This document shows, in pieces, positions 4,709 through 19,385 of a stretch of 64,000 nucleotides of DNA. Origin of the DNA: Candidatus Dormiibacterota bacterium (GTDB taxonomy: Bacteria; Chloroflexota; Dormibacteria; Aeolococcales; Aeolococcaceae). The notes beneath the pieces were generated by a model. The model saw only the letters and a program-made list of their open reading frames with translations. It did no database searches and was not told the DNA's origin. Position 1 is the first letter of the stretch. Each line of letters begins with the position of its first letter. The stretch spans positions 1,576 to 65,575 of the forward strand of contig DAITPY010000005.1 of assembly GCA_036833315.1 (NCBI GenBank), in the 5' to 3' direction. A program made the translations under genes and the position numbers.

Positions 4709-7700
4709 TCAGCGCGAAGCGATCGCTGCGAAGGATGTGCCGAGCGCTGCAGGCAGACCGTCCTCGAAGGTCACGCTGTTGGTCCGAACCGACGTGATCC
4801 GCGGTCCCGGAAGCAGGATGCCTGCCAGGTTCAGAGGATCGGTCGCGGAGACGCGAACCATCTCCGAGGAGCGCTCGCGACGGCGCACGCCGCGCAGCTG
4901 ATCGATCGCCTCGGGCAGCGCGTACTGCTCACCCGCGAAGCCGGTGACGAAGCGTCCGCCGCGGGCCGTGCCGCGAGCTTCCATGCGGCGCAATGCCCAG
5001 ACCACGTCGCGCCACGGCAGCGCGATCGTCTCGCGGGCGACCACGTCGCGAAATACCACTCCCCATCTGACCAGCAACTGCTCGGCGATCGCCTCGGCGA
5101 GCGCGTCTCGCTCAGCCGCGGATGTGACGCGCGGTACCAGCGACCACCGTCCCTCGCCGGACGAGTAGCCGCTGACGCCGTGACGCAGGCCGCGGTGGTA
5201 CTGACGTGACCGTCCCAACCTGCGGCTGACCAGGAGACGGCGCACCGCGCTGAATCCGTCTGCGGTCAACAGGCCGCGCGCCACGCCGTCCCAGAGCGCG
5301 GTCTCGACCTCGCTCGGCAGCCTGCGGGTGAGAGTCACGATGTCGCTGGTGAACAGCGCGCCGTGCTCGCGCAGCGCGTCGAGCACATCGAGGGTCGCGC
5401 CGGATGCGGGCTCGAGAGGTTGGGCGTCACCGCGGACCGACTGGAGCAGCCAGGGCAGGTCCGAGCGCATCACCAACGTCACCGGGGTCGCGCGCGATGC
5501 CGAAGCGCTGCTCCGCTGCGCTGAAGCGCCGTCGGGATCGTCGCGGACCTTCAGGCGCGCCCAGGCGACCTCGCCGGACATGCACAGCTCGTCGAGCCAC
5601 GCGCTCCGATATCCGGACACCCGGCTCGGCAGCACCGACTCCTCCCACACGCCCGCGGGAATCTCGAACCCCTGGAGTTGCGCGATCGTGGCCGCCACCC
5701 CGGCGCGTCCCTCGCGCTGCGTGCCCGGAGCCACGCGCTGCCAGCGGAGCAGGAATCGCATGAAATCCTGCGCAGTGACCGGTTCGATCTCCTGACGCAG
5801 GCGTTGCTGCGTATAGGAATGAATACGAACGAGCAGGCGGCGGGCGCACCACTGGTCGCCGTCGGTCCCCGGGTCGAAGTGCCCGCGAATCGCCGATCCG
5901 TCGCCCTCGAGCATCGCCAGCCCGACCGCGATCTCGGTCGCACCGAGACCCGTGATTGTCGAGAGCGTCTGAGCGCTCACCGGCCCGCTGACTTCGAGGT
6001 GGCCGCGAAGGATGGCGGTGATGGTCGCGTCGCGTTCGGCTGGAAGGCCTGACAGCGCGGGCGGCAAGGCCGCCGGCAATGGACGGATCACCGCCTCCGG
6101 CCACATCACCGCGATAGCGGTCATGCGCTCGGTCGCGCACCAGAACGTGTCGTCGTCACGGGAGACCGTCAGCGCCCTGCCATGTTCGACCAGCTCGTCG
6201 AACCATGCGGCCCATGATGCGACCGGTCGAGACACCACCAGCGACACCAGCAGATCGTGCAACTCATCGCCGTCGCGCGGATCGGGCGCCGCCTCGCCGC
6301 GGACTCGGGCGATCGCGTCGGGGTCGAGCGCCGCGAGGTCACGTGCCTCTACAGGGAGCCCGCGGCGCAGTGTGATCGCGCGGCTTCGGCGCTCCTCGAG
6401 CGGTGCATCGTCAAGGAACGTGTACGGCCTCCCATTGACGATCTCGTGCGCCAGCGGCGAGGGCTCGACGGTGTCCCGGTAGCTGATCTCGACCTCTCGC
6501 CGCTCGATGCGCACCACCAGCTCGCGCAATGAGTCGACGTCCATCACCTCGTGCAGGCAGTCGTACATCGTCTGATTGACGAGGGGATGATCCGGCGGTT
6601 CGACGGGGCCCGTCGGGTTCTCGTTCTGACATGCGACCAGCTGCGGGAACACCGCGCCCATGATGTCGTCGGACTCGAGACGCTGGAGCGGCGCTGGATT
6701 CTTGCGACCGCCCTTGAAGCGAAGCACGGTGAGCGAGCGATTGAGGTTCCAGCGCCAGCGCACCGCCCACATCGGCGCGAAGATCGCGGCCTTGCGCAGG
6801 ACCTCCTCCACCGTGTTCGATGAAAGGAACTTCGGGATGTCCTCGAGGGGAAAGCTGTGCTGCGGACCGAGTGACAGGAGGACGCAGTCGTCACTTGCCG
6901 CAGCCTGCAGCTCGAAGTCGAAGGTGGCGCAGAAACGCTTTCGCAGCGCCAGGCCCAGCGCCCGATTCACCCGGCCCCCGAAGGGCGCGTGCACAACCAG
7001 CTGCATGCCACCGCTGTCGTCGAAGAAGCGCTCGAGGACGATGTGCTCGAGCGTCGGCACCACGCCGAGCGCAGTGCGACCCGCCGCCAGGTAGCGGACC
7101 ACCATCGCGGCAACGTCGTTGTCGACACCGGCGCGCTGCTCGACCCATGTGATCGCCTCGTCGGCACCACCTTCGGCGAGCAGCGCGTCAACGCCGCTGC
7201 GCAGGTCCGACACCTCGCGGGACAGTTCCTCGGTGCGCGCCGGAGCCTCACCGAGCCAGAAGGGAACCGAAGGCGGTGCGCCGTGGGCATCCACCACGCG
7301 CACGGTGCCGGGGAGGACTCGCCGGATCTTCCACGATGTGCTGCCCAGCAGGAAGATGTCGCCTGCCGACGACTCGATCGCCCAGTCCTCGTTGACGGTG
7401 CCGATGAAGGTGTCGTCAGGCTCGGCGAGCACCCGGTAGTCGCCGGTCTCGGGGATCGCGCCACCCGATGTGAGCGCGGCCAGTCGCGCACCCCGCCGCG
7501 CGCGCACCTCGCCGTTGATCCGGTCGCGGTGCAGATACGCGGCGACTCTGCCGCGGCCGGTTGGAATCCCGTCGGACACCAGTTCCACCACGCGATCGAA
7601 ATCCTCGCGCGTGAGGTCCATGAACGGCGCGGCGTGGCGCATCAGCTCGAAGAGATCGTCCTCGCGCCAGCTCTCGGCGGCGCACTCGGCGACGATCTGC

Positions 7701-8974
7701 TGCGCGAGGATGTCGAGCGGCATGTGCGGCGGGTGCACAGCATCCAAGGCTCCGCTGCGCACTCCCGCGAGCAGTGCCGTGCACTCGACGAGCTCATCGC
7801 GGGTCATCGGATAGAGGCGGCCCTTCGGCGTGCCTCCGCGACTGTGTCCGGAGCGGCCGACACGTTGGAGGAATGTCGCGATGCTGCGTGGTGACGCGAT
7901 CTGACAGACCATCTCGATGGGGCCGATGTCGATGCCCAGCTCCAGCGACGCCGTCGCCACCAGCGCGCGCAGCTCACCGGCACGCAATTGCGACTCGACG
8001 CGCTGCCGGCGCTCCTTCGAGAGGCTGCCGTGGTGCGCCGCGACGGCATCGTCGCCGAGCCGCTCGGCGAGCAGGTGCGCAACGCGCTCGGCCATGCGCC
8101 GCGTGTTGACGAACACCAGCGTGGTTCGATGCGCGCGCACATGGGTGGCGATCGCGTCGAGCACCTCGCCGAGCTGTTCGCGCGACGCCACCGCCTCGAG
8201 CTCCCCAGACGGCAGTTCGATGCCGATGTCGAGGGCCCGGCGGTGCCCCACGTCGACGATCGAACATCGCGGGACGCCGTCTCCGTCGCTCCGCTCGGGG
8301 CCGGCGCCGACCAGCAACCTGGCCACGGTCTCGATCGGCCGCTGCGTCGCCGACAGCCCGATACGGACCGGGCGGCGCGCGCAGAGGCGCTCGAGGCGCT
8401 CGAGCGTCACCGCTAGATGCGACCCGCGTTTGTCCCGGGCGACCGCATGGATCTCGTCGACGATGATCGTCGTCACCGTGGCGAGCGCGGCCCTGCTTCG
8501 CTGCGAGGTCACCAGCAGATAGAGCGATTCGGGTGTCGTGACCAGGAAGTTCGGCGGCCGCTTGATCATCGCGACTCGCATCGATGCCGGCGTGTCACCG
8601 GTTCGCACCTCGGCGCGCAGGTTCGGCAGGCTCATCCCCATCGCCATGCCGATCTCCGCAATCTCACGAAGCGGCGTCTCGAGGTTCTGCTGCACGTCGA
8701 CCGCGAGCGCCTTGAGCGGCGATACGTACACCACCTGGGTCGTCCCCTCGACCATCTCGCCACGCTCCGCGGCTCGGTATAGCGCGTCGATGCAGACGAG
8801 GAAGCCGGCGAGCGTCTTGCCCGAACCCGTGGGCGCCGCGATCAGCGTGTTGTTGCCCGCCGCGATCTCCGGCCAGCCCGCCACCTGGGCGGGCGTCGGA
8901 CCTTCCGGAAAGCGCCGCTCGAACCAGGCTCGCACCGCCGGGTGGAACCCGGCCATCTCGCTCATCGGGTCCAT
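4709..8974 (-). CDS. lhr: Lhr-type large ATP-dependent DEAH/DExH helicase
   Basis: 1421-aa ORF. N-terminus has helicase motif I (AAPTGSGKTLAGFL), DExH (IVDEIHA), a helicase C domain and a long Lhr-like C-terminal extension. Convergent with the kinase, stops 16 nt apart. Confidence 0.85.
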   Translation of the reverse strand: MDPMSEMAGFHPAVRAWFERRFPEGPTPAQVAGWPEIAAGNNTLIAAPTGSGKTLAGFLVCIDALYRAAERGEMVEGTTQVVYVSPLKALAVDVQQNLETPLREIAEIGMAMGMSLPNLRAEVRTGDTPASMRVAMIKRPPNFLVTTPESLYLLVTSQRSRAALATVTTIIVDEIHAVARDKRGSHLAVTLERLERLCARRPVRIGLSATQRPIETVARLLVGAGPERSDGDGVPRCSIVDVGHRRALDIGIELPSGELEAVASREQLGEVLDAIATHVRAHRTTLVFVNTRRMAERVAHLLAERLGDDAVAAHHGSLSKERRQRVESQLRAGELRALVATASLELGIDIGPIEMVCQIASPRSIATFLQRVGRSGHSRGGTPKGRLYPMTRDELVECTALLAGVRSGALDAVHPPHMPLDILAQQIVAECAAESWREDDLFELMRHAAPFMDLTREDFDRVVELVSDGIPTGRGRVAAYLHRDRINGEVRARRGARLAALTSGGAIPETGDYRVLAEPDDTFIGTVNEDWAIESSAGDIFLLGSTSWKIRRVLPGTVRVVDAHGAPPSVPFWLGEAPARTEELSREVSDLRSGVDALLAEGGADEAITWVEQRAGVDNDVAAMVVRYLAAGRTALGVVPTLEHIVLERFFDDSGGMQLVVHAPFGGRVNRALGLALRKRFCATFDFELQAAASDDCVLLSLGPQHSFPLEDIPKFLSSNTVEEVLRKAAIFAPMWAVRWRWNLNRSLTVLRFKGGRKNPAPLQRLESDDIMGAVFPQLVACQNENPTGPVEPPDHPLVNQTMYDCLHEVMDVDSLRELVVRIERREVEISYRDTVEPSPLAHEIVNGRPYTFLDDAPLEERRSRAITLRRGLPVEARDLAALDPDAIARVRGEAAPDPRDGDELHDLLVSLVVSRPVASWAAWFDELVEHGRALTVSRDDDTFWCATERMTAIAVMWPEAVIRPLPAALPPALSGLPAERDATITAILRGHLEVSGPVSAQTLSTITGLGATEIAVGLAMLEGDGSAIRGHFDPGTDGDQWCARRLLVRIHSYTQQRLRQEIEPVTAQDFMRFLLRWQRVAPGTQREGRAGVAATIAQLQGFEIPAGVWEESVLPSRVSGYRSAWLDELCMSGEVAWARLKVRDDPDGASAQRSSASASRATPVTLVMRSDLPWLLQSVRGDAQPLEPASGATLDVLDALREHGALFTSDIVTLTRRLPSEVETALWDGVARGLLTADGFSAVRRLLVSRRLGRSRQYHRGLRHGVSGYSSGEGRWSLVPRVTSAAERDALAEAIAEQLLVRWGVVFRDVVARETIALPWRDVVWALRRMEARGTARGGRFVTGFAGEQYALPEAIDQLRGVRRRERSSEMVRVSATDPLNLAGILLPGPRITSVRTNSVTFEDGLPAALGTSFAAIASR

Positions 8975-9028
8975 GATCCTATCATCCCGGCAGAACAGAT
9001 GTTCGCGGCGGGCGGACGGACGCGGACG

Positions 9029-9481
9029 TCAGCGGTGCCGGCTCCGGTCCTGCTCCGCCTCCAAGGCGAGCACGCTGCACAGGATCAGCAGGTCGTTCTG
9101 ACCGTCGACGACGTCGACGCCATACGAGTCGGCGAGGCTGATCCAGGCCTTCGACACCGTGGCGATGGCCTGACCGTTCTCGGTGACGGTGAAGTCGTGT
9201 CCGAGGAAGTTGCCGGTCATCTCCATCTCCGCTCCGCCGGCGACGGAGATGTTCCACTTCGGACGCAAGGGGTTGGAGAAACGTTGGTGCACCTCGGCAG
9301 TGACGCCGCCCGGCAAGGTGACCTCATACGTCGCCAGCAGCGAGACGAGCTTCCGGCTGACCTGCCCCACCTCATTGCCTGCCATGTCGTTGACGACCAT
9401 CAGGCCATGGAGGCTGAGCACCTTGCCGTCGACCTGCAACACAGGCTGGCCGGCGTCGTTGAAGATGTCGTTTGTCCTCAC
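9029..9481 (-). CDS. LOR/YxjI family (LURP-one-related, Tubby C-terminal-like fold) protein
   Basis: 150 aa. Its motif spacing (VSRKLVSL...YEVTL.GG...FSNPLRPKWNISV..G...TGNFLGHDFTV.ENGQAIATVSKAWISLADSYGVDVVDGQNDLLILCSVLALE) resembles B. subtilis YxjI / PF04525 as I recall it. Confidence 0.65.
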   Translation of the reverse strand: MRTNDIFNDAGQPVLQVDGKVLSLHGLMVVNDMAGNEVGQVSRKLVSLLATYEVTLPGGVTAEVHQRFSNPLRPKWNISVAGGAEMEMTGNFLGHDFTVTENGQAIATVSKAWISLADSYGVDVVDGQNDLLILCSVLALEAEQDRSRHR

Positions 9482-9580
9482 CGAGCCGGAAGATTCGCTC
9501 CTGGATCTGGTATCGCATCGGTCATTGATCCCTCAAGTGCTTTCGGGGACGTTGCCACCACTCTGCGCCTTCATGTGCGG

Positions 9581-10690
9581 TCACGCTCTGATCCCGGTGA
9601 CGTTGTAGGCCTGGATGGGCTGGGGGAAGCCCTTGAGCTGCAAAGGGCCGACCGGTTCGACGTCGACCAGGTCGGTGATCGCGGCATATGCCTTCGGCGC
9701 GAGCAGGATCTGGCCACCCGCAGCCTGAGCACAGAGCCGAGCTGCGAGATTCACGACCGTCCCGGTGGCGCGATAGTCGAACCGGCCCTCGAAGCCCACC
9801 CGGCCGAGCGTGGCATGTCCCTCGGCGATGCCGACACCGACATCGAGGTCGTAGCCGTTCAAGCGCCAGCCACGAGCGAGCGCGTTGGTCGCGTCGCGGG
9901 AATCGACGGCCATCCGCACCGCCTGCGCCGTGTGGTCGACGCAGGGCACCGGGTCGTTGACGATCGCCATGATCGAGTCTCCGACGAACTGCTCGAGCGT
10001 CGCCTGATAGTCGAGGATGAGATGGCCGACCGTGCCGTAGAACTGGTTCAGCACGCTCATCGTCTCCTCGGGCTCCGCCGTCGCCGAGAACGCGGTGAAG
10101 CCCCTGAGGTCCCAGAACACGATGGTCACCTCGCGCCGATGGGTCTCGAGCATCTGGCCGCCGCCGTCCAGGATGACCTCAGCAACCTGCGGGGAGAAGA
10201 AGCGGCGCAACCGGTCGAGGCCCTCGAGCTCCGCCACCTGACGCTGTACGCGATCCTCGAGGGTCCGGTTCAAGTCGGCGAGCTCGGCCGCCTGCGCCTG
10301 GATGGTGTCGTGATACGTCTTGATCCGCAGCAGCGATCGCACCCGGCTGAGCAGCTCCGAGGGATTGAACGGCCGGGCGATGAAATCATCGGCCCCCGCC
10401 TCGATAGTGTCGACCTTGTCCTGATCACCGCTCGAGGTCATCATCACCACCGGCAGGAGGCGCGTCTCCGGATCCTCGCGCAGACGGCGGCACACCTCGT
10501 AGCCCGAGATGTCGGGCATCACGATGTCGAGGAGGACCAGGTCGGGGCGCTCGGTGCGCACCTTCTCGAGACCGTCGAGACCGGAGTGCGCGAGCACCAC
10601 CGAATAGCCGCGTGGGGACAGCATCGCCTCGAGCAAGCGTGCGTTCTGGGGCGTGTCGTCGACCACCAGGACCTTCGCGGTCTGATCCAT
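9581..10690 (-). CDS. Response-regulator receiver domain fused to class III nucleotidyl (adenylate/guanylate) cyclase
   Basis: N-terminal REC: KVLVVDDTPQNARLLEAML...DLVLLDIVMPDISGYEV...VVMMTS. C-terminal CHD cyclase: VTIVFWDLRGFT (metal Asp), FVGDSIMAIV (second metal Asp), FDYRATGTVVNLAARL. Start ATG at 10690 overlaps the upstream gene's stop by 1 nt. Confidence 0.85.
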   Translation of the reverse strand: MDQTAKVLVVDDTPQNARLLEAMLSPRGYSVVLAHSGLDGLEKVRTERPDLVLLDIVMPDISGYEVCRRLREDPETRLLPVVMMTSSGDQDKVDTIEAGADDFIARPFNPSELLSRVRSLLRIKTYHDTIQAQAAELADLNRTLEDRVQRQVAELEGLDRLRRFFSPQVAEVILDGGGQMLETHRREVTIVFWDLRGFTAFSATAEPEETMSVLNQFYGTVGHLILDYQATLEQFVGDSIMAIVNDPVPCVDHTAQAVRMAVDSRDATNALARGWRLNGYDLDVGVGIAEGHATLGRVGFEGRFDYRATGTVVNLAARLCAQAAGGQILLAPKAYAAITDLVDVEPVGPLQLKGFPQPIQAYNVTGIRA

Positions 10691-11088
10691 CAGCCGCCAC
10701 CTCGCGACCGGTTGCAGTAGGCGAGTATCTCGCCCGGAAAGCTCTTGACGTCGATCGGTTTCATGATCGAGCCGTCGAAACCGGCATGGGTGAATCGCTC
10801 GCGATCGGCCGGCATCACCGAGGCTGTCACCGCGACCACGCCGATGCCCGCGGTGAGTGGATCCGCCCTGAGGTGCTCCAGCGCGGTGACACCGTCCATC
10901 CCAGGAAGTTCGATGTCCATGAGGATGAGGTCCGGCGCGTTCGTCGACGCCAGCTCGAGCCCGGTCTCGGCGTCACCGGCCTCCAGCGTGCGAAAGCCAT
11001 GGTACTGAAGGAGATCGCGGACGAGTTTGAGGTTCTTCTCGTTGTCCTCGACGATGAGAATCAGCTGACCATCGGCGAGCGGACTCAT
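10690..11088 (-). CDS. Stand-alone response regulator (REC domain only)
   Basis: True start is the internal MSPLADGQLILIVEDNEKNLKL... of the 175-aa ORF. Phospho-acceptor context DLILMDIELPGMDG, and the protein ends after the REC domain. ATGA start/stop overlap with the upstream kinase at 11085-11088. Confidence 0.8.
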   Translation of the reverse strand: MSPLADGQLILIVEDNEKNLKLVRDLLQYHGFRTLEAGDAETGLELASTNAPDLILMDIELPGMDGVTALEHLRADPLTAGIGVVAVTASVMPADRERFTHAGFDGSIMKPIDVKSFPGEILAYCNRSRGGG

Positions 11089-12719
11089 GTCACGCGCGCC
11101 GCCGCAACCTCGGGCGTGGCATCCCTTGCATCGTCTGGGCCGGTGGAAGTGATCGCCTGGGCGCGTGGCAACGTGAAGGTGAATGTGCTCCCCTTTCCTG
11201 GCGCGCTCTCCACCCACAGGCGGCCGCCGTGCAGCTCGACGATGCGCCTCGTCAGGGCCAGGCCAAGTCCGGTGCCCTCCTGCGCGTTCGACCCGCCCGC
11301 CTGCTCGAACTCCTCGAAGATCCGTGCCTGGTCAGCCATCGCGATCCCGGCCCCATCATCGCGGACGCTGACGACCACTCCGTCCGCCTCAGCGCGTGCT
11401 GTGACTTCCACATGTCCACCGCGGTCGGTGAACTTCAACGCATTGGTGAGCAGGTTGAAGAGCACCTGCTTGAGCTTCCGCTCGTCCGCTTCGAGAACTC
11501 CGCTGCCCGGGTCGACATCGAGCTGCAGGCTGATCCCGCTGCGCGTGGCGCGCTCGCGCATTAGTGCCACCGAGCTCTCGATCACGTCGGAGAGCGTGAC
11601 ATCGCTGACCTGCAGCTCCATCCTCCCAGCCTCGATCTTCGAGAGGTCGAGAATGTCGTTGATCAGCGCCAGGAGGTGGCGTCCCGACGTGTGGATGTCG
11701 GTGATGTAGTCGGCCTGCTTCTCGTTGAGATCACCGAAGAGGCGATCGAGGAGCACCTCGGAGAAGCCGATCACCGCGTTTAGCGGGGTGCGCAGCTCGT
11801 GCGACATGCTCGCCAGGAACTCCGACTTGTGCCGGCTGGCGCTCTCGAGCTCTCTGTACAGCCGCCCCAGCTCCTCGTTGGTCCGGTTGAGGTTCGCAGC
11901 CAGCAGGCCAAGTTCGTCGCGATTGGGCACCTCCACATGGCCCGAGAAATCCCCTTCGGCGATCGCAGCGAGTCGCGTGTTCACGCGCTTGAGGGGCCCG
12001 ACGAGCGACCACGAAAGAATGAAGCCGAGCAGCAGCGCCAGGACGACGGTCGCCGCGGCAACCGCGATGAAGAGGTGCTCCGAGTCCGCGTAGGCGGTTG
12101 TGTTCGCGGCGATCAGCGCAGCCGTGTCCCCTGTGGTGGTATTCACGAGCTGCTCGCTGAGCAGAGTCAAATCGTTGGCTTTTGGTTCGCCCTCTGAGGA
12201 CTGCAGTTGCAGAGCCTGGTTCGGCTTTCCTGCCGCGTCCAGCTTGAGGATGTCCGCAGCCACACGCGAGAATTGCACGTAGTCGCTCCGGATCTGGGTC
12301 AGCACCGCCCTCTCTGCGTCAGGCGGCACGAATCCCAGCTGCGAACTGTCGGAGGCTGGGCCGATTTGAGTGAGCACCGTCTGGATCGCTCCGTCCAGCG
12401 CCGAGCTTGCCCCGAGCGAGGTCGTCCCTCCGGTGAAGGTGTTGAGATCCTGACCGCCGGCGCGCAGCCCCACCAGCAGGCGCAGCTCGGAGGCATAGGT
12501 CTCGAGCTTCTGATAGGCGGCCGTCCGCTGCTGCAGCTTGCCGAGCGTCTCGATGCGGTCGTTCGAGTCGCCGAGGACGCGAAGGCCGAGGACGCCGACG
12601 GTTACCAGCAGGACGACGATGCTCACGAAGGCGACGAGAAGCTTGCGGTTGACCGTGGCCGGCACGCGCGCGACTGCACGCACGACGGGGTTGTCGTCCG
12701 GGTTCAGGAACGAGGGCAA
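11085..12719 (-). CDS. Sensor histidine kinase (TM-periplasmic-TM-HAMP-HisKA-HATPase_c)
   Basis: TM1: LLVAFVSIVVLLVTVGVLGL. TM2: AVAAATVVLALLLGFILSW. HAMP: LKRVNTRLAAIAEGDFSGHV. HisKA: SEFLASMSHELRTPLNAVIGFSEVL. HATPase_c: NLLTNALKFTDRGGHVEV...DDGAGI...GTGLGLAL. Confidence 0.85.
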   Translation of the reverse strand: MPSFLNPDDNPVVRAVARVPATVNRKLLVAFVSIVVLLVTVGVLGLRVLGDSNDRIETLGKLQQRTAAYQKLETYASELRLLVGLRAGGQDLNTFTGGTTSLGASSALDGAIQTVLTQIGPASDSSQLGFVPPDAERAVLTQIRSDYVQFSRVAADILKLDAAGKPNQALQLQSSEGEPKANDLTLLSEQLVNTTTGDTAALIAANTTAYADSEHLFIAVAAATVVLALLLGFILSWSLVGPLKRVNTRLAAIAEGDFSGHVEVPNRDELGLLAANLNRTNEELGRLYRELESASRHKSEFLASMSHELRTPLNAVIGFSEVLLDRLFGDLNEKQADYITDIHTSGRHLLALINDILDLSKIEAGRMELQVSDVTLSDVIESSVALMRERATRSGISLQLDVDPGSGVLEADERKLKQVLFNLLTNALKFTDRGGHVEVTARAEADGVVVSVRDDGAGIAMADQARIFEEFEQAGGSNAQEGTGLGLALTRRIVELHGGRLWVESAPGKGSTFTFTLPRAQAITSTGPDDARDATPEVAAARVT

Positions 12720-12720
12720 G

Positions 12721-13233
12721 TCAAGGGCTCAGGATCGGGGTGGCCGAGACCGAGTTGGTGATCATCCATCGACCGTGGATGCGTCCGACTGTGACCTGGG
12801 AACCCACGACCACGACCACCTTGCGGGTGGCGACATCCACGTAGTGGCACTCGAAGTACAGGGTGCCGGTGTTGCCGCTGACGGTGATGCGGATCTTGTA
12901 CGCGGGCGTATCCGAGACCCAGATGTTCCCAGCTTTGAACGGTGCTGCCTTGGTTGCGAAAAAGGTTCGTATCTGGTCCTTGCCCGAGTACGTCTGGGGG
13001 CCTATCTGAAACGTGGCGTTGTCAGCCCAGAGGCTCATCATCAGATCGACGTCCTTCATGGATGCGGCCTTGTGCCAGGTCGCCTCGATCTGGTCGATGG
13101 CGTACAGGTCCGCCTTCTTCTGCAGGGCGGCCATCTGTACCGCCGCCTGCGTCGCCGACGCCTGGTCCGAGCCGCACCCGGCGACGACCACTCCCGCTGC
13201 GACCATGCCGCATATCACCAGAACCCGTTTCAC
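12721..13233 (-). CDS. NTF2-like / SnoaL-like (DUF4440-type) lipoprotein
   Basis: Signal peptide with lipobox (VKRVLVICGMVAAGVVVAGCGS), followed by a fold-like pattern (WADNATFQIGPQTYSGKDQIRTFF...GTLYFECHYVD...RWMITNS). Stop sits 2 nt upstream of the kinase start. The ORF track extends the N-terminus to 13338; start chosen at a GTG before the signal peptide. Confidence 0.5.
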   Translation of the reverse strand: MKRVLVICGMVAAGVVVAGCGSDQASATQAAVQMAALQKKADLYAIDQIEATWHKAASMKDVDLMMSLWADNATFQIGPQTYSGKDQIRTFFATKAAPFKAGNIWVSDTPAYKIRITVSGNTGTLYFECHYVDVATRKVVVVVGSQVTVGRIHGRWMITNSVSATPILSP

Positions 13234-13347
13234 GATCCTCGCTCCTCCAGCGGCCGTCCGCCTGGGCTGAGCACCTGGCGCGGCGGTCGATGCATCAATA
13301 ACAGAAGTCACAGGGGTCCGTTGTCGCTTCGCCGACACCGCCAGGCG

Positions 13348-16299
13348 TCAGGCGCTCGAGCGCAGCTCCTCCAGGCGGCTGCGCATGCGCGCGGCCATCG
13401 GCACGATGCCCTTCTGGGCGTACATCGCGATGGCGCGTTCGAGTGCCTCTGCGGCGCGATCCGAATCCCCGCCGAGCCGCCAGATCTCGGCGAGGTCGGC
13501 ATATGCGTTGCCGAGCTCCTCGGGCCTCGTCCCGGCCCACTCGATCGACTCGCGCGCCAGCCGTATCGCCTCGTCGCCGTCGCCTTGTCGGGCGAGCAGC
13601 TTCGCGCGGACACCACGCCACAGCACCTGGGTCGCCGCGTCCGTCGGCTGCGCCAGGCGCTGGCTCTCGCCGCTCGCCTCGTCCGCGTCGGCGTACCGCC
13701 CGAGCTCGTAGAGCGCCTCCGCGAGCTCGCCAACGATCGTGGACAGAACGCCCGTCTCGCCGATCGACCGCAGCTCGTCACATGCGGAACGGAGCAGGCG
13801 CTCGCCAGCGGCTATTTCCCCGGCGTAACGCTCGACCAGCGCCTCGTCGCGCGCAGTCCCCACTGCGGTCAATCTGCTCAGCCCGAACTCGTAGAAGGTG
13901 GCACGCGCCTTGTGGATCAGCCGCCGGCCCTCGTCGAAATCGCCCCCCATCGCCCGTAGGAGCCCCTCGATGTCGTCGACGGCGGCATCCTCGACAGGCC
14001 CCTGCGCAAGCGTTCTGAACCACCGCTGAGTCGTCAGGAGCGCCTCGTCGACAGGGATCGAGCCCAGCGCGCTCGACGCGGTGAGGAACAACATCGCCTG
14101 GAGCGCACTCGGGCGATCGCCGGCGTCCCGCGCGGCCGCGAGCAACCGCTCAGCGGCCGAATCCAGGTCGACCATCTCGGTGAGCGCGATCGCGAGCTCG
14201 AGCCGGCGCAGATAGACGAGCGCACGTCCGTCGCGGAGGCGCTCGATCTCAGGTCCGCGTGTTTCGAGCTCGCGACGGATGCGCACGGTATCGGTATCCG
14301 GAACGGTCTGCAAGCTCACGAGCTGATGGATCGCCCATGCACTCAGCTCCGCGGCGCGATCATTGGCGGCGCGGCTCTCCTCGACCGCTTGTGCGACGAG
14401 GCCGAGTGCCCGCTCCATCCCGGTGGCTGCATCGAGGATCGCGGCGGCGAGCAACGGCAGGACGCGAACCCGGGTTGGATCGCCGGGCGGCAACAGCGCC
14501 ACCGCGCGGTTGAGCAGACCTTGGGCGGCAGAGACGTCGCCGCGGTCGTAGGCCCGTGTTCCCGAGCTTGCGAGCAGCTCGGCTGCGCGCTGCCCGGCAT
14601 GGTTCTCGTCCGGCAGGTCGAGCTCGTTGCGATAGAGGGCGGAGCGCTCGAGGTGGTAGGCCAGGATCTCTTCCATCTCGCCAATCCTTTCCGTCGCGAC
14701 ACGCTGCAGCCAGTCGAACAATTTCTCGTGCAGCTCCGCCCGCAGCTGCTTCGACATTGCCTCGTACGCGGCATCACGAAGCAGGACATGTGTGAATCGA
14801 TACCCGTCGTCGCCGGGAAACTGCGCGCGATCGGGACGCACGAACTCCTTGCGCACGAGTGCCAGGAGGACGGCGCCGACATTGGGCCGCACGTCGGCTG
14901 GAACCAGTTCGGTGACCGAGCCGCGGTGGAACAGACGGCCTTCTACCGCGGCGCGTTCGAGCACGATGCGTTCGGCCGGCGCGAGCGAGTCCAGGCGCGC
15001 CGCAAGCAGAGCATGGAGCGTCGGCGGGATGCCGATGTCACCGTCGGCCTGGGCTTGCAGCGCAACGAGCTGTTCGACGAAGAGCGGATTTCCCTCGGCC
15101 GTGTCAAGGATGCGCCGGCGCGTCTCATCGTCGACGTCGCCCGCGAGCTGTGCCGCTTCCTCGGCCGAAAGTGGTTCGAGCGCGAGTACCTCGGCATTCG
15201 GACGAGGTCCGGTCCAGCCCGGTCTCGCGTCGAGGAGCTCGGCGCGACCGGTGCACAGCAGCAACATCGGCGCAGTGGCGAAGTCCGCAACGTATTCCAC
15301 CAGGTCGAGGAACGTGGGCTCGGCCCAGTGCAGGTCATCGAGGACGACGAGGAGCGGCCGGTCGGTCGCGAGCACCTCGAGATAGCGCCGAGCCGCCCAC
15401 TGCGTCTCCTCCTTCGTACCGGCTACGCCGCCGACCCCGATCGCGGCCGCGATGCGATCGGCAACGAGGTCGTCCCCTGCGACAGCGGCTATCCCGTCGC
15501 GCTGCGCGCCGGCGGTCATACGGACCATCTCCGCGAGGGGGAGGTACGTGATCCCTTCGCCGTAAGCCTGGCAGCGGCCGACGACGACGCGAGCCTGGCC
15601 CGAAACGTGTTGCACAAGCTCCCGCGCGAGCCGTGACTTGCCGATTCCGGGTGCGCCGAGCAGTGTGAAGCGCCGTGCGGCATTCGTCCGGACGACCATC
15701 TCGAAGGCGGCTGTGAGCCGAGCAAGCTCATCGCCGCGGCCGACGAATGGCGCGTCGATCCTGCGCGTGAACGCCGGAGCGTCGTCGAGGACGTCGAGGA
15801 GCCGCCAGGCCACGACCGGCTGGCTCTTGCCTTTGGCATTCAGTGGCGCGACCGTTACCGCACTCAGCGCGTCGCGCGCGAAGCGGTAGGTCGCGTCGCC
15901 GAGCAGGATCTCGCCTGCCGATGCGCCCTGCTCGAGCCGCGCCGCCACGTTGACGGCGTCCCCGGTGATGAGTGTCTCGCCTTCCTCGGCAACGACTTCG
16001 CCGGTGTTGATGCCGATCCGCAGCTCGATGCCGAGCGCCGCGACGTTGCGGCGCAACTCGAGTGCCGCGCGAGCCGCTCGCAGCGCGTCATCCTCGTGCA
16101 CGGCGGGCACGCCGAACACCGCCATCACCGCGTCACCGATGAACTTCTCGACCGTCGCGCCGTGCCGTTCGAGCGTGGCGCGTGACACCTCGAAGAAGCG
16201 CGTCATGACCCGGCGCAACGCCTCCGGATCGCTCTGTTCGCCCATAGCCGTGGATCCCGTCACGTCAGCGAAGAGAATCGTCACGGTCTTGCGGACCAC
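13348..16299 (-). CDS. STAND-type multidomain protein: class III adenylate cyclase-AAA/NB-ARC ATPase-TPR repeats
   Basis: Cyclase: TILFADVTGSTAMGE...EKFIGDAVMAVFG...GINTGEVV...GDAVNVAARLE. P-loop NTPase: LLGAPGIGKSRLAREL. Long TPR-like C-terminus, no HTH seen. The ORF track extends to 16620 but the N-terminal ~107 aa are off-composition and overlap the MazF-like gene. Start assigned to the GTG at 16299 (VVRKTVTILF). Confidence 0.8.
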   Translation of the reverse strand: MVRKTVTILFADVTGSTAMGEQSDPEALRRVMTRFFEVSRATLERHGATVEKFIGDAVMAVFGVPAVHEDDALRAARAALELRRNVAALGIELRIGINTGEVVAEEGETLITGDAVNVAARLEQGASAGEILLGDATYRFARDALSAVTVAPLNAKGKSQPVVAWRLLDVLDDAPAFTRRIDAPFVGRGDELARLTAAFEMVVRTNAARRFTLLGAPGIGKSRLARELVQHVSGQARVVVGRCQAYGEGITYLPLAEMVRMTAGAQRDGIAAVAGDDLVADRIAAAIGVGGVAGTKEETQWAARRYLEVLATDRPLLVVLDDLHWAEPTFLDLVEYVADFATAPMLLLCTGRAELLDARPGWTGPRPNAEVLALEPLSAEEAAQLAGDVDDETRRRILDTAEGNPLFVEQLVALQAQADGDIGIPPTLHALLAARLDSLAPAERIVLERAAVEGRLFHRGSVTELVPADVRPNVGAVLLALVRKEFVRPDRAQFPGDDGYRFTHVLLRDAAYEAMSKQLRAELHEKLFDWLQRVATERIGEMEEILAYHLERSALYRNELDLPDENHAGQRAAELLASSGTRAYDRGDVSAAQGLLNRAVALLPPGDPTRVRVLPLLAAAILDAATGMERALGLVAQAVEESRAANDRAAELSAWAIHQLVSLQTVPDTDTVRIRRELETRGPEIERLRDGRALVYLRRLELAIALTEMVDLDSAAERLLAAARDAGDRPSALQAMLFLTASSALGSIPVDEALLTTQRWFRTLAQGPVEDAAVDDIEGLLRAMGGDFDEGRRLIHKARATFYEFGLSRLTAVGTARDEALVERYAGEIAAGERLLRSACDELRSIGETGVLSTIVGELAEALYELGRYADADEASGESQRLAQPTDAATQVLWRGVRAKLLARQGDGDEAIRLARESIEWAGTRPEELGNAYADLAEIWRLGGDSDRAAEALERAIAMYAQKGIVPMAARMRSRLEELRSSA

Positions 16300-16318
16300 C
16301 GGCTGAGTGTAGGGGGCG

Positions 16319-16684
16319 CTACGGCTCGGGGACGACCTCACCAATGGCCCGGCGGATCGCGCGGACGACCTCGTCCATTCGATGACCGTCAACTCGCGGT
16401 CCCAGCGGTCCGCGCACGAGGAAGTCGCGATCGAGGGTGGTGATCTCCTCACAGAACAGAACGCTGTCGAAGGGAACACTCCCGGCTCCGGCTGGAAGGC
16501 GGACGCGGGTCGGCCCGAGGCGCCCCCTCGAAAACAGAGGGACCACGACCAGGTCGTCACGCATGGTGTTGCGGACGTTCTCGGAGACGACCAGCGCCGG
16601 CCGGGGGTGATGCGGATCATCAGGCTGGCCCGGCGTATAGACGTACCAGATCTCGCCCCGACGAGGTTCCGGCGGATGTCGCAC
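16319..16684 (-). CDS. MazF/PemK-family toxin (mRNA interferase)
   Basis: 121 aa: GEIWYVYTPGQPDD...RPALVVSENVRN...DLVVVPLFSRG...FDSVLFCEEITTLDRDFL. The pattern matches PemK/MazF. Confidence 0.7.
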   Translation of the reverse strand: MRHPPEPRRGEIWYVYTPGQPDDPHHPRPALVVSENVRNTMRDDLVVVPLFSRGRLGPTRVRLPAGAGSVPFDSVLFCEEITTLDRDFLVRGPLGPRVDGHRMDEVVRAIRRAIGEVVPEP

Positions 16685-16695
16685 GGTGCGCCCGG

Positions 16696-16947
16696 TCAGG
16701 CGCGTCTCAGCCTGCGACGCACCGACTCACGTCGCACCTGGTGCCAGGCGTCCAGCTCGGCCGGGTCCGTTTCGCCTTCATCGGCAAACTGCAGCTCCAT
16801 GCCTGATCGTTGCTGCGCCGCGGACCAGAGCTGCAACGCCTCATCGACCACCTTGCTGCGATCGGAGTCTTCGTGCGCCTCGACATAGGCGTCGACATCG
16901 CGCACAAGCAGAGGATCGAGCGAGAGGCTGACCTTGATTCTTGGCAT
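16696..16947 (-). CDS. Ribbon-helix-helix (CopG/MazE-like) antitoxin
   Basis: Internal start MPRIKVSLSLDPLLVRDVDAYVEAHEDSDRSKVVDEALQLW is a typical RHH N-terminus. Lies immediately upstream of the MazF-like gene. Confidence 0.6.
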   Translation of the reverse strand: MPRIKVSLSLDPLLVRDVDAYVEAHEDSDRSKVVDEALQLWSAAQQRSGMELQFADEGETDPAELDAWHQVRRESVRRRLRRA

Positions 16948-16994
16948 CCTACCGATGGTAGCAGGATAGGTAGGATGACGAGCCTCGGGCGTCC

Positions 16995-19100
16995 TCAGAC
17001 GGCTTGAAGGACGGGAAGCCACCCGCGCAGCCGGCAGCCGTCGCCCACCGCGGAATCGATCTCGAGATGCCCGTCGAGGGCGTCGAGCCGGTCGGCCACG
17101 TTGGTGAGCCCCGATCCTCTGAGCACGGTCGCGACCTCGAATCCGCAGCCGTTGTCATCGACCTCGAAGCGCAGCACCCCGTCGGCTTCGCTGAGCCGGA
17201 CCGTGGCCAGTGACGCGCCCGCGTACTTCTGCACATTCTGGAGTGCCTCGAGCACGGAAAAGTACACCGCTGCCTCCTGCTCCTGCGGGTGGCGATCGAT
17301 GGTCCCGGCCTCCACGACAACCGGGACTGTCGCCTTGCGGGCCTGCGCCTGGAGCGCCTCCACGAGCCCTCGCTCGGCCAGGATGGGCGGGTAGATGCCG
17401 CGGGCCAGGTCTCGCAGGTTCTCGAGGGCTTCATCCGCCTCGGCCTTGAGCTGTTGCAGTGTGGCGCGCGCCTTATCCGGGTTCCTGTCCATGAGCATCT
17501 CGGCCAACCCCACCTTGACCTTGAGCGCGACCAGGTGCTGTTGTGCGCCATCGTGCAGGTTGCGCTCCAGCCGTCTTCGTTCCTCGTCCTGCGACCTGAC
17601 CAGCCGCTGACGCGAGGCGCGCAGCTCGTCGAGGCGCTGCAGCAGCTCGGCGGTGAGGCCGACGTTCTTGAGCACCAACCCCGCCTGGTGCGCGAGGTCC
17701 TCGAGCAGCTTTAGCTCGATAGGGGTCAGCGACTCACCGCGGCGCTTGGTGATCGTCAGCGCTCCCAGGAGATCCCCCTGATGCAGCACCGGCACGGCAC
17801 GCTGGACGCCGTCCATCTCGGGAAGATATGTCCCGACGAGGGAGAGCGGCGCCTGTCCATTCGACGTCTCCGGATAGGTCGCCGCCGCACGCAACTGCTC
17901 ACCAGAACGCAGCCAGACAGTCGCAGCCGCTGCGGATGTTCCCTCCTGCAGGACCCGAGCCATGCGAGGCAGCACCTCCCCCGCCGCGTAGGTCTCGGCG
18001 ACACGCTGCGAGAACTCGCTCAGCACCTCGTACGGTGTGGCTCGTTTGCCGTACACGAGCCGGTTCGCGATGTGTTGCAGGCGCACGCGCACGGGTTGGA
18101 AGCCGACCGCGACGATCGCTGTGGCAAGGATCGAAAGTCCCAGGTTCGGCTTGCCTCCGCTCCCGACCAGTGTTCCGATGCCCACGGCAATGCCGACGTA
18201 GACCGCGGTGATCAACGCGGCAAGCGCGGCGTAGACGATGGCGCGACTGATGACGATGTCGATGCCGTACAGCCGGTACTTGAGGATCGCGATGCCGCAG
18301 GCGACCGGAATGGCGACACCGATGCCCGCCTCGAGGATGGCATTCGACAGCGGCTGCGCATACGGGGACGAGAACCCGAGGGGAAAGGTCGCCGCATACG
18401 CAACCAGGGTGGCGACAACGGCAAACGCAAACCACTTGATCTGCTGCCGCTCGTCGCCGGCAGACCGCCGGTAGCGAACCACGATGCTCGCGCCGGCCAC
18501 AAGGAGTAGCAGCAGGCTGACAGGCCACGTCACCCAGAGCCAGCCCAGCACGGGAGCGCTACCCTTGATGGCGGTCGGATCAGGGATGGACCGGACATTC
18601 GCCGCAATCGAGATCGGCCCCTCGTACAGGATCGTCCCAACCATCAGGAGAGCCGTGACCACGACCGCCGCGCCTGCGACCGGCCGCCAGCGCGAACTGA
18701 CCAGCCGGCCGGTCGGAAAGAGCAGTAGGACGAAGAGGAACGCACCGCTGGGAAAGACCGGCAGGATGATCCAGTTCGAGAGCCAGGCGGCCCATTGCAC
18801 TCCAGGCAGTCCCGGCGCGCCGAGAAGGCCTCGAAACGCGTATTCGCCGGAGGCTGCATGGAGCGATCCCAGGAGCGCGGCAGTCAGGAGCAGCCAGCCG
18901 ATGGGATTTCTCCGCTCCCGCGTTGCCACGATCACACCCACCGGAAGAATCCCTAGCTGAATCACGAGGTCGGGACCGAATGGGCTGGTGAGCACGTTGA
19001 GGTCGCCGTTCAGATAGGCCAGGGTCCACGCTACCGCCTCCAGCCCCAGGGTGGCGAGCGTGCTGGTCAGGGCGATCGTGAACGCTGTCCTCGACCTCAT
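16995..19100 (-). CDS. Polytopic membrane sensor histidine kinase, HisKA_3 (NarL-partner) type, orphan
   Basis: About 8-10 TM N-terminal domain, a GAF-like region, HisKA_3 (LERNLHDGAQQHLVALKVKVGLAEML) and HATPase_c (YFSVLEALQNVQKYAGAS...VDDNGCGF). Start taken at MRSRTAF (19100). The ORF-track N-terminal extension to 19358 runs across the att repeat and is rejected. Confidence 0.8.
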   Translation of the reverse strand: MRSRTAFTIALTSTLATLGLEAVAWTLAYLNGDLNVLTSPFGPDLVIQLGILPVGVIVATRERRNPIGWLLLTAALLGSLHAASGEYAFRGLLGAPGLPGVQWAAWLSNWIILPVFPSGAFLFVLLLFPTGRLVSSRWRPVAGAAVVVTALLMVGTILYEGPISIAANVRSIPDPTAIKGSAPVLGWLWVTWPVSLLLLLVAGASIVVRYRRSAGDERQQIKWFAFAVVATLVAYAATFPLGFSSPYAQPLSNAILEAGIGVAIPVACGIAILKYRLYGIDIVISRAIVYAALAALITAVYVGIAVGIGTLVGSGGKPNLGLSILATAIVAVGFQPVRVRLQHIANRLVYGKRATPYEVLSEFSQRVAETYAAGEVLPRMARVLQEGTSAAAATVWLRSGEQLRAAATYPETSNGQAPLSLVGTYLPEMDGVQRAVPVLHQGDLLGALTITKRRGESLTPIELKLLEDLAHQAGLVLKNVGLTAELLQRLDELRASRQRLVRSQDEERRRLERNLHDGAQQHLVALKVKVGLAEMLMDRNPDKARATLQQLKAEADEALENLRDLARGIYPPILAERGLVEALQAQARKATVPVVVEAGTIDRHPQEQEAAVYFSVLEALQNVQKYAGASLATVRLSEADGVLRFEVDDNGCGFEVATVLRGSGLTNVADRLDALDGHLEIDSAVGDGCRLRGWLPVLQAV

Positions 19101-19191
19101 GTGCCGAGTATTCTCAGACGCGGGAGGCAGATCCGAAATGGTGCCTGCACTTGAGGGCCGGGGGGGTTGGCCACACCGGCGATCGGCGCAG

Positions 19192-19219
19192 TGGTGGAGG
19201 CGCCGGGGATCGAACCCGG
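19192..19219. repeat. Distal att repeat: 28-bp exact copy of the 3' end of ssrA
   Basis: TGGTGGAGGCGCCGGGGATCGAACCCGG is identical to 25346-25373 and in the same orientation. It covers CCA, the acceptor 3' strand and the T-arm of the tmRNA. Confidence 0.75.
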
Positions 19220-19220
19220 A

Positions 19221-19385
19221 GACCTCCCCACTGACGTTGACCAGGACTTGCTCATCGATCTGCTCATCGGCCCGTTCTACTACCGCATCTTTATCACGGG
19301 CCACCGCGTCGAACCCGATCTCTCGGAGAAGCTCGTCGATTTCGTGCTCTTGCGGCATATCCCGAAGGTGGCCACCCGCCCTTAG
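19221..19385 (+). pseudogene. TetR-family regulator C-terminal fragment (5'-truncated at the island junction)
   Basis: Translation ...DQDLLIDLLIGPFYYRIFITGHRVEPDLSEKLVDFVLLRHIP... resembles a TetR C-terminal ligand domain. It has no HTH N-terminus and starts exactly where the ssrA homology ends. Confidence 0.3.

Follow-up and report, generated by a model that had tools for sequence, protein, structure and literature searches.

When a single histidine kinase is encoded together with two receiver (REC) proteins, one standing alone and the other fused to a class III nucleotidyl cyclase, how are the parts wired together and what do they produce? The question is raised by a four-gene cluster at positions 9581-13233 of a 64,000-nucleotide (nt) stretch of contig DAITPY010000005.1 (assembly GCA_036833315.1), from a Candidatus Dormiibacterota bacterium; this whole stretch is referred to below as the window, and is ~67% G+C. 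Receiver-fused class III cyclases are a known architecture of which almost none have been studied, and stand-alone receivers in branched two-component pathways are understood in few models (DivK and the chemotaxis sinks). The locus belongs to a large and tightly conserved three-gene module, comprising the kinase, the small receiver and the receiver-cyclase, in poorly studied soil phyla. On balance, we think that this module probably works as a branched two-component system, wired in the manner of DivK and PleD, that drives a class III cyclase and has a cyclic nucleotide as its output.

An operon-like cluster of four minus-strand genes

The list of open reading frames (ORFs), direct reading of the strand and Pfam agree on four genes in succession, all on the minus strand, at the positions given by the initial annotation, and all four of its domain calls were right. 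The first gene (12721..13233, GTG start) encodes a SnoaL/NTF2-like lipoprotein of 170 residues (Pfam SnoaL_4 4.5e-08, SnoaL_2 8e-07). It is followed by a HAMP histidine kinase of 544 residues (11085..12719, TTG start; HATPase_c 7e-35, HisKA 3e-23, HAMP 1e-10), a REC-only protein of 132 residues (10690..11088; Response_reg 1.6e-23) and a REC-class III cyclase fusion of 369 residues (9581..10690; Response_reg 5e-29, Guanylate_cyc 6e-21), hereafter the REC-cyclase. The junctions are very tight. Kinase and REC-only genes share an ATGA start/stop overlap of 4 nt at 11085..11088, and the REC-only and REC-cyclase genes overlap by 1 nt at 10690 within the sequence TGATG (10688..10692), both as first described. 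The lipoprotein/kinase junction, for which a 2-nt spacing had been given, reads TGAcTTG (12719..12723): the stop codon TGA occupies 12723-12721 and a spacer of only 1 nt, at 12720, separates it from the TTG at 12719. The same 1-nt spacer recurs among the called genes of four related loci (L009, L010, L097 and L098). The GTG start of the lipoprotein gene is preceded, 8 nt upstream, by a GGAGGAG sequence at 13248-13242. A promoter and terminator scan of 8900-13500 returned one promoter-like and one terminator-like site, no more than expected from shuffled sequence and neither at a gene boundary, and is uninformative on transcript structure. The operon-like coupling of the four genes is real, and their adjacency is beyond chance because the REC/REC-cyclase overlaps recur in loci that were picked only by motifs in the cyclase domain.

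Conservation of a kinase/REC/REC-cyclase trio

A scan of a genome collection with the REC-cyclase protein gave one close relative, a Candidatus Dormibacteraeota metagenome-assembled genome (MAG) with 92% protein identity, and one distant module in Beijerinckiaceae, the other matches being unrelated REC proteins; conservation was therefore measured on metagenome contigs. We picked 80 metagenome loci solely by two motifs within the cyclase domain, added nine loci from other look-ups, and scored the resulting 89 by tblastn with the window proteins. Counts of the REC gene were limited to the 79 loci with at least 420 nt of upstream sequence, and counts of the kinase to the 41 with at least 2.1 kb further upstream; near-duplicate loci (L010/L011, L064/L065) were included, so that the counts overstate independence. 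A REC gene lies directly before the REC-cyclase gene in 77/79 loci, and in 69 of these 77 its product is closer to the window's stand-alone receiver than to the cyclase's own receiver. Among the 76 loci in which the two genes are not fused, the junction is a 4-nt overlap in 32 and a 1-nt overlap in 16 (48/76 together). The catalytic core of a kinase, 50–85% identical to that of the window, is found upstream on the same strand in 41/41 loci. The initial annotation had paired a single kinase with two receivers, one being fused to a cyclase, and these counts back this pairing, as do natural fusions of the two receivers described below. The conserved unit is the kinase/REC/REC-cyclase trio; identities of 45 to 92% across related loci, and its occurrence in Dormibacteraeota, Chloroflexota and one Beijerinckiaceae MAG, show it to be broadly inherited. 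The wider REC-cyclase family is large: at least 8,000 homologues match at E<1e-10 in a 90%-clustered protein collection, from which the best 8,000 candidates were scored, and a 50%-clustered library contains 8,366 representative clusters that reach E≤1e-30.

The order kinase, small REC, REC-cyclase holds in all homologue neighbourhoods inspected on long contigs, while the gene before the kinase varies. Its product is a SnoaL lipoprotein in L009 and L010, and L013, L014 and L017 have a solute-binding protein of SBP_bac_5 type. L015 and L016 have no accessory gene there, and their kinases carry cytoplasmic or other sensor domains instead (dCache-HAMP-GAF or GAF-GAF). In one distant module locus (L070:3840-4475), a gene for a SCO1/SenC-type thiol-disulfide or copper protein ends 9 nt before the kinase, adding a further kind of putative extracytoplasmic partner to the SnoaL and SBP_bac_5 proteins. 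Conservation of a five-gene neighbourhood, which had been proposed to run from the lipoprotein to a LOR gene beyond the cyclase, fails at both ends: the LOR gene stands near the module only in L009, with two extra genes between, and the place of the lipoprotein is taken elsewhere by SBP_bac_5, by SCO1/SenC or by nothing. Such variable input (NTF2-like lipoprotein, solute-binding protein, SCO1/SenC, GAF, dCache) on a constant output core amounts to a natural experiment in sensor swapping.

Two receivers resembling DivK and PleD

The stand-alone receiver keeps the full phospho-acceptor set (E14, D15, D58, T88 and K110, from strand reading and alignment to DivK). Compared with solved structures, it matches Caulobacter DivK best (E 6.9e-24), followed by PleD (1e-19) and PhoB (7e-15), and an ungapped alignment of 112 residues gives 46% identity to DivK. 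In the receiver of the REC-cyclase, D11, D12, D55 and T85 are present and invariant across 121 sequences (the query and 120 homologues). Its best match in the PDB is the first receiver of PleD, REC1 (5e-41; next protein 2e-27), and the PleD-family model also leads in NCBIfam (1.9e-44; next 3e-33). Around the segment 'RP(I/F)xPxEL' it resembles PleD REC2 as well.

Two natural REC-REC-cyclase fusions, P0078 (from locus L016) and P0062, join the two proteins with the DivK-like receiver first. Compared with the window proteins, the first REC of the fusions shares 52–59% identity with the stand-alone receiver; the second REC shares 66–69%, and the cyclase domain 53–60%, with the corresponding domains of the REC-cyclase. 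L016 lacks a separate gene for a small receiver between kinase and fusion. These Rosetta-stone fusions are rare (1/77 metagenome-derived loci), and they provide what we consider the strongest comparative evidence that both receivers would act in one complex or pathway.

The rivals to a branched system differ mainly in the role of the small receiver. Sinks of the CheY1/CheY2 type work by phosphoryl competition, and the stand-alone receiver might be a pure phosphate sink of this kind, with no regulatory contacts of its own, which would sharpen or shorten the response in cyclic nucleoside monophosphate (cNMP) solely by competing for phosphoryl groups. A sink would fit a protein that has all of the phospho-acceptor residues and no output domain, that is strictly co-inherited with the REC-cyclase and kinase, and that works in a system with no Hpt domain. 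However, its repeated N-terminal fusion to the REC-cyclase is difficult to reconcile with the role of a mere competitor and points to physical cooperation, and DivK, the closest characterised relative, is described as binding its kinases instead of acting as a sink (PMC7003649). A pure sink therefore seems to us unlikely. Cooperation could also take the form of a split PleD-like stem, in which the stand-alone receiver and the cyclase REC are a hetero-REC pair like D1/D2 of PleD, phosphorylation-dependent dimerisation assembles the cyclase dimer, and the two genes are equivalent to one fused homologue. The order of the receivers in P0078 and P0062, the resemblance of the cyclase REC to both receivers of PleD, and a translational coupling that favours stoichiometric synthesis all speak for such a stem. 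Set against this, the fusions are infrequent, and the second REC of PleD is a non-phosphorylatable adaptor whereas both receivers here keep the acceptor Asp, so that we give the split stem only a slim chance. The branched system, with a small receiver that would tune the branch, is the reading taken forward below.

A cyclase domain with catalytic residues retained and substrate contacts replaced

The best solved-structure match of the cyclase domain is Pseudomonas aeruginosa CyaB (3R5G, E 2e-32), followed by Synechocystis Cya2 and Spirulina CyaC, the last of which aligns over the full length of the domain (E 1e-17). In ungapped alignments, D194 and D238 fall on the metal-binding Asp residues of CyaC, CyaB and Cya2, and N314 and R318, within the motif VVNLAARL, fall on the known transition-state Asn and Arg. 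The CyaC equivalents are D1017, D1061, N1146 and R1150. All four residues are kept in nearly all module loci. For the three-gene core, both the neighbourhood and the catalytic residues are therefore preserved, the reverse of the combination that the initial annotation had named as fatal to its proposal.

The residues that select the base are another matter. The substrate pair is Gln234/Arg307: CyaC and CyaB have Lys where the window protein has Gln234, and Thr where it has Arg307, and in the guanylyl cyclase Cya2 the aligned residues are Glu and Gly. In these alignments, the REC-cyclase has neither the adenylyl cyclase pair (Lys with Asp, or with Thr/Ser in class IIIb) nor the guanylyl cyclase pair (Glu with Cys, Ser or Gly). 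In the 120 closest homologues, Q, R, W or H occupies the first position, and K is absent from it. Across the 89 module loci the pairs are R/A (33), H/G (16), Q/R (12), R/G (10), W/S (4) and others, with K in none, and the Q/R pair is confined to a Dormibacteraeota-like clade with at least 66% cyclase-domain identity. In the wider family, sampled as 143 domains from representatives, there are only four cases of K/T, all from distant members, and three of E/G. Because the catalytic residues are conserved while the base contacts drift, the pattern argues for an active enzyme whose nucleotide preference is not readable from known rules. A cNMP output, as first proposed, remains a reasonable expectation; however, with the Lys-Asp/Thr pair replaced by Gln234/Arg307, the predicted product is not one that can be called cyclic AMP (cAMP), and these two residues do not name the nucleotide. 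This family-wide absence of the substrate Lys with the catalytic residues kept poses a testable question as to which nucleotide is made, and nucleotide specificity is the most novel aspect of the module.

Genes for cNMP-binding or Crp proteins adjoin the module in L010/L011, L014, L018, L033 and L017, which supports a cyclic mononucleotide product without saying which. The Crp of L010 is most like GlxR and the CRP of Mycobacterium tuberculosis. Its phosphate-binding cassette is conserved, but its base-contacting positions (Leu and Thr) are not diagnostic, and it was set aside as a guide to the nucleotide; the M. tuberculosis protein has Thr and Asn at these positions. As a more speculative extension, for which we see perhaps one chance in several, the trio family might make a cNMP other than cAMP (cyclic GMP, a pyrimidine or another unusual nucleotide), with clade-specific pairs (Q/R; R/A, R/G, H/G, W/S) encoding different products and the single-domain receiver serving as a DivK-like allosteric switch of the kinase. 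If true, a non-cAMP product would mean a widespread second-messenger system under two-component control in Dormibacteraeota, Chloroflexota and other soil phyla.

A further alternative is that the cyclase domain is not catalytic at all, and acts as a nucleotide-binding or dimerisation output module that makes no second messenger. The family-wide absence of the base-binding Lys and the variation of the pair between clades would accord with this, as would a group of paralogous REC-cyclases of 584–597 residues (P0017, P0047 and ~20 others; loci L012 and L013) that share the kinase/REC operon context. In these, the first metal Asp is replaced by N, H or T, and an additional C-terminal region of ~210 residues is present, with the motif ...EGEFWSLSYQG..VRLKDSKGLRDIARLL... 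and without a match in Pfam; such proteins could be pseudo-cyclases that have some other output. However, the window protein and nearly all module loci retain the two metal Asp residues together with the transition-state Asn and Arg, as would be expected under selection for catalysis, and several relatives encode cNMP-binding proteins beside the module. A non-catalytic domain is accordingly very unlikely here, and we continue with an active cyclase as the output of the branched system.

An AlphaFold2 model of the REC-cyclase, built with 22 homologues, has a mean predicted local distance difference test (pLDDT) score of 86.5. In it, helix alpha5 of the receiver runs unbroken as a 53-residue helix (110-162), followed by a short helix (167-175) and then the cyclase domain. 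The linker sequence RLRRFFSPQVAEVIL can be aligned with the linker that the 6FHT chimera takes from Cya2, and the short helix looks to us like the cyclase-transducer element of class IIIa/b enzymes. A related protein of 520 residues, P0054, carries one receiver followed by two tandem cyclase domains and is a possible intramolecular pseudo-heterodimer. Assignment to a Pycsar anti-phage system was considered and rejected: the PycC models match weakly (62 bits), a canonical STAND-type cyclase encoded next to the cluster matches similarly (56 bits), so that the homology is that of cyclases in general, and there is no effector gene.

The sensor kinase and its lipoprotein neighbour

The kinase has two hydrophobic segments, TM1 (26-46) and TM2 (216-240), which by the inferred topology would enclose an extracytoplasmic region of ~170 residues; this sensor region has a weak Pfam match to 4HB_MCP_1 at its N-terminal edge. 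A HAMP domain (235-279) leads into the catalytic core, with the boxes SHELRTP (H-box, containing His309), NLLTNALKF (N), DDGAGI (G1) and GTGLGL (G2). With its H-box His, its N, G1 and G2 boxes and its TM-sensor-TM-HAMP arrangement, the protein is a HisKA-type sensor histidine kinase. The DivJ (4e-63) and PdhS (2e-58) models are among its top seven NCBIfam matches, far below their cut-offs, and DivL is its third-best match in the PDB. These matches are not specific enough to file the kinase in the PdhS/DivJ family.

A phosphorelay was also suggested initially; in linear form it would run from the kinase through the REC-only protein and an Hpt domain to the REC-cyclase, and could draw on the two receivers downstream of one kinase and on the 23 related loci (L015, L029, L034, L035, L043 and others) in which a hybrid kinase carries one or two extra REC domains, giving three or four receivers per system, but it is barely credible, as no Hpt domain was detected in any of the four proteins (Pfam, E≤0.01), in those hybrid-kinase loci or among the genes called at the related loci that were inspected, and the window kinase is not a hybrid.

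The sensor region diverges far faster than the core (in the closest MAG its identity is 46%, compared with 81% for the core), and is 40–57% identical in most loci. In full-length comparisons, sensor identities are 82, 57, 55 and 46% where a lipoprotein is present and 44–51% where it is not, which is only a weak trend.

The product of 12721-13233 is predicted to be a secreted lipoprotein. It has a signal peptide (VKRVLVICGMVAAGVVVAG-C20) with an n-region KR, a hydrophobic stretch and the lipobox VVAG-Cys20, and Cys20 is invariant in 33 homologues. SnoaL_4, SnoaL_2 and SnoaL_3 all score above the Pfam cut-offs, and the AlphaFold2 model is an alpha+beta cone fold (pLDDT 84.7 overall, above 90 in the core). 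Foldseek returns SgcJ as the best match (E 3e-10), with probability 1.00 to SgcJ, LinA and other NTF2-like structures; the nearest of these, SgcJ and LinA, are small-molecule-binding or -converting proteins.

The lipoprotein family has ~1,800 members at E≤1e-5, and a homologue is encoded directly upstream of a histidine kinase in L009, L010, L023, L031, L097, L098 and L099. Searching from the lipoprotein side, three of three long contigs showed this arrangement, and the output that follows differs between them: L098 has the full REC/REC-cyclase pair, L097 the kinase alone, and L099 a different kinase of HisKA_3 type. A role as candidate co-sensor of the kinase within a sub-clade fits these observations, because the lipoprotein-kinase pairing holds independently of the output. 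The accessory-sensor role suggested for it at the outset has therefore gained support, but it would apply only to that sub-clade of the module.

A proposed branched pathway and the evidence against it

In the branched system that we favour, the periplasmic region of the kinase, ~170 residues long, would detect a cue from outside the cytoplasm, with the NTF2-like lipoprotein taking part in this clade. The kinase would phosphorylate the small receiver at Asp58 and the REC-cyclase at Asp55. In the REC-cyclase, this phosphorylation would drive or re-register dimerisation of the REC domains, and the continuous alpha5/coiled-coil helix would then align the two cyclase domains into an active head-to-tail dimer that produces a 3',5'-cNMP. 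The small receiver would tune this branch, either by feedback on the kinase (as DivK acts on PleC and DivJ), by phosphoryl competition, or by docking on the cyclase REC, the last being suggested by the natural REC-REC-cyclase fusions.

A number of observations weigh against this model. Phosphotransfer, dimerisation and cyclase activity are all inferred. In the receiver of the REC-cyclase, residue 106 (window ~10373-10375) is Arg where receivers have a near-universal Lys (the K109 position of CheY), as it is in 97 of the 121 sequences compared, against Lys in 23; work on CheY K109R indicates that Arg there could uncouple phosphorylation from activation, and the second, non-phosphorylated receiver of PleD likewise has Arg at the equivalent position. 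The best NCBIfam matches of the stand-alone receiver are receiver domains of hybrid kinases (BarA and TorS), so its likeness to DivK comes from the PDB comparison alone. The kinase core is similarly not specifically PdhS/DivJ-like, with TorS, HrmK and PnpS models scoring higher in NCBIfam. On the output side, ordinary adenylyl cyclase chemistry is not to be assumed where the substrate Lys is missing from all 89 module loci and all 120 closest homologues, and tblastn with the L010 Crp and cyclic-nucleotide-binding proteins found no cNMP receptor gene in the window. On the input side, the lipoprotein accompanies a minority of the module loci (L009, L010, L023 and L031 in the tblastn comparison), and no obvious Shine-Dalgarno sequence precedes the TTG start of the kinase.

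Relation to characterised systems

The closest parallel is DivK-PleD. The divK and pleD genes form one operon in Caulobacter and Agrobacterium, and DivJ and PleC are described as phosphorylating both products, with DivK allosterically regulating its kinases (PMC7003649, citing Paul et al. 2008). As there, a single-domain receiver gene directly precedes the gene of a receiver-fused nucleotide cyclase, translationally coupled in the window, and DivJ and PleC serve both receivers in the known system as the single kinase would here. The output differs from that of PleD: it is a class III Guanylate_cyc domain with no GGDEF in Pfam, where PleD has GGDEF and makes cyclic di-GMP, and it follows one REC instead of REC-REC. 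The kinase gene is, unlike the DivK-PleD case, in the same operon and not specifically PdhS-like. The organisms differ too: a Dormibacteraeota-like bacterium of soil in the present case, and an alphaproteobacterium equipped with a CtrA cell-cycle circuit in the other. The receiver pair probably shares ancestry with DivK-PleD, and we would say that the module works like that system without treating it as a member. The same wiring appears here with a different, structurally related cyclase, which suggests that a small receiver paired with a receiver-cyclase is an ancient and portable design, not an alphaproteobacterial speciality.

Other systems share single features. Cyanobacterial CyaC (Spirulina/Anabaena) also combines a class III (IIIb-like) cyclase with an adjacent receiver and is controlled by His-Asp phosphotransfer to it, activation having been reported to occur by autophosphorylation and phosphotransfer (Kasahara & Ohmori 1999, cited in PMC1183210). 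CyaC is, however, one polypeptide, where the window has three separate coupled genes and an extra stand-alone receiver, and its substrate pair is Lys/Thr in place of Gln/Arg. Rec-GGDEF proteins such as DgcR and WspR share the plan of a receiver, a long alpha5-continuous helix and a dimeric palm-domain cyclase, as seen in our AlphaFold2 model, and a DgcR model matches residues 5-149 of the REC-cyclase at 5.6e-22; for DgcR, activation through the coiled-coil linker has been described (PMC8041772). Their catalytic domain and product are different, and they have no obligatory single-domain receiver partner.

In the Pil-Chp system of P. aeruginosa, whose single-domain receivers PilG and PilH mediate control of the cyclase CyaB (PMC10519157), one kinase and two CheY-like receivers likewise set the output of a class III cyclase, and CyaB is the best structure match of the window domain. 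CyaB, however, has no receiver domain, is regulated in trans and has the Lys/Thr pair, and the kinase of that system, ChpA, is of CheA type and belongs to a chemosensory array. Rv0386 of M. tuberculosis reportedly has a non-canonical Gln/Asn substrate pair, with Gln at the Lys position as in the REC-cyclase, and a STAND-type cyclase of Rv0386-like architecture is encoded directly upstream of the cluster. Rv0386 differs from the REC-cyclase in lacking a receiver and in having Asn instead of Arg at the second position, and the STAND-type neighbour in the window has the canonical Lys.

For the input, NlpE-CpxA and RcsF are examples of lipoprotein-assisted sensing. Another is QseG-QseE, in which a lipoprotein is described as controlling a sensor kinase (PMC6075780). 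Here too, an extracytoplasmic lipoprotein is encoded beside a histidine kinase and is presumed to act on its periplasmic domain; unlike QseG, it has an NTF2/SnoaL-like cone fold, and the interaction is presumed. All parts of the module are of known kinds, and the literature searched contained no description of the tripartite arrangement and no characterised operon of histidine kinase, single REC and REC-class III cyclase, although absence there is not proof.

Flanking genes

Downstream of the cyclase gene lies a frameshifted LOR/DUF567-like gene on the minus strand (9029..9518; Pfam LOR 1e-10), outside the conserved module and beside it only in L009, the closest syntenic relative. It had been placed 100 nt after the cyclase gene; its conserved ATG at 9518 in fact lies 62 nt after the cyclase stop, and the frame is broken. 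DNA alignment with an intact orthologue of 163 residues in L009 shows one extra A in the run 9471-9473, and the ORF of 150 residues from GTG 9481 is the downstream part of this gene. The frameshift is either that of a pseudogene or a homopolymer sequencing error. A comparable case is seen in the closest MAG, with the 92% identical cyclase, where the stand-alone receiver gene appears split into two frames (L001:7604-7998); this is probably a long-read assembly error, and calls for caution over the LOR frameshift.

Upstream of the cluster, also on the minus strand, is the gene of the STAND-type cyclase (13348..16620; Guanylate_cyc 1.9e-19, AAA_16 2.5e-22 and TPR_12), which has the canonical Lys in the motif VEKFIGD and is probably a separate transcription unit. 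Its true start probably lies downstream of 16319, because the listed 5' 300 nt overlap the ORF of a PemK/MazF-like toxin (16319-16684, minus strand; Pfam 1.5e-15). In L009, L010 and L016 the module likewise has similar STAND-type cyclase genes beside it, which means that several cyclases are clustered in these genomes. A small minus-strand ORF upstream of the toxin gene (16696-17022, no Pfam match) may encode its antitoxin, and toxin and small ORF are wedged between the STAND-type cyclase gene and that of a GAF/HisKA_3 kinase (16995-19358). On the other side of the cluster, beyond the LOR gene, the window encodes an Lhr-type helicase (4709-8974, minus strand), which is syntenic with L009, a HAMP-GAF-HisKA kinase (2207-4693, plus strand) and the C-terminal two-thirds of an Hsp70/DnaK protein (175-1482, plus strand).

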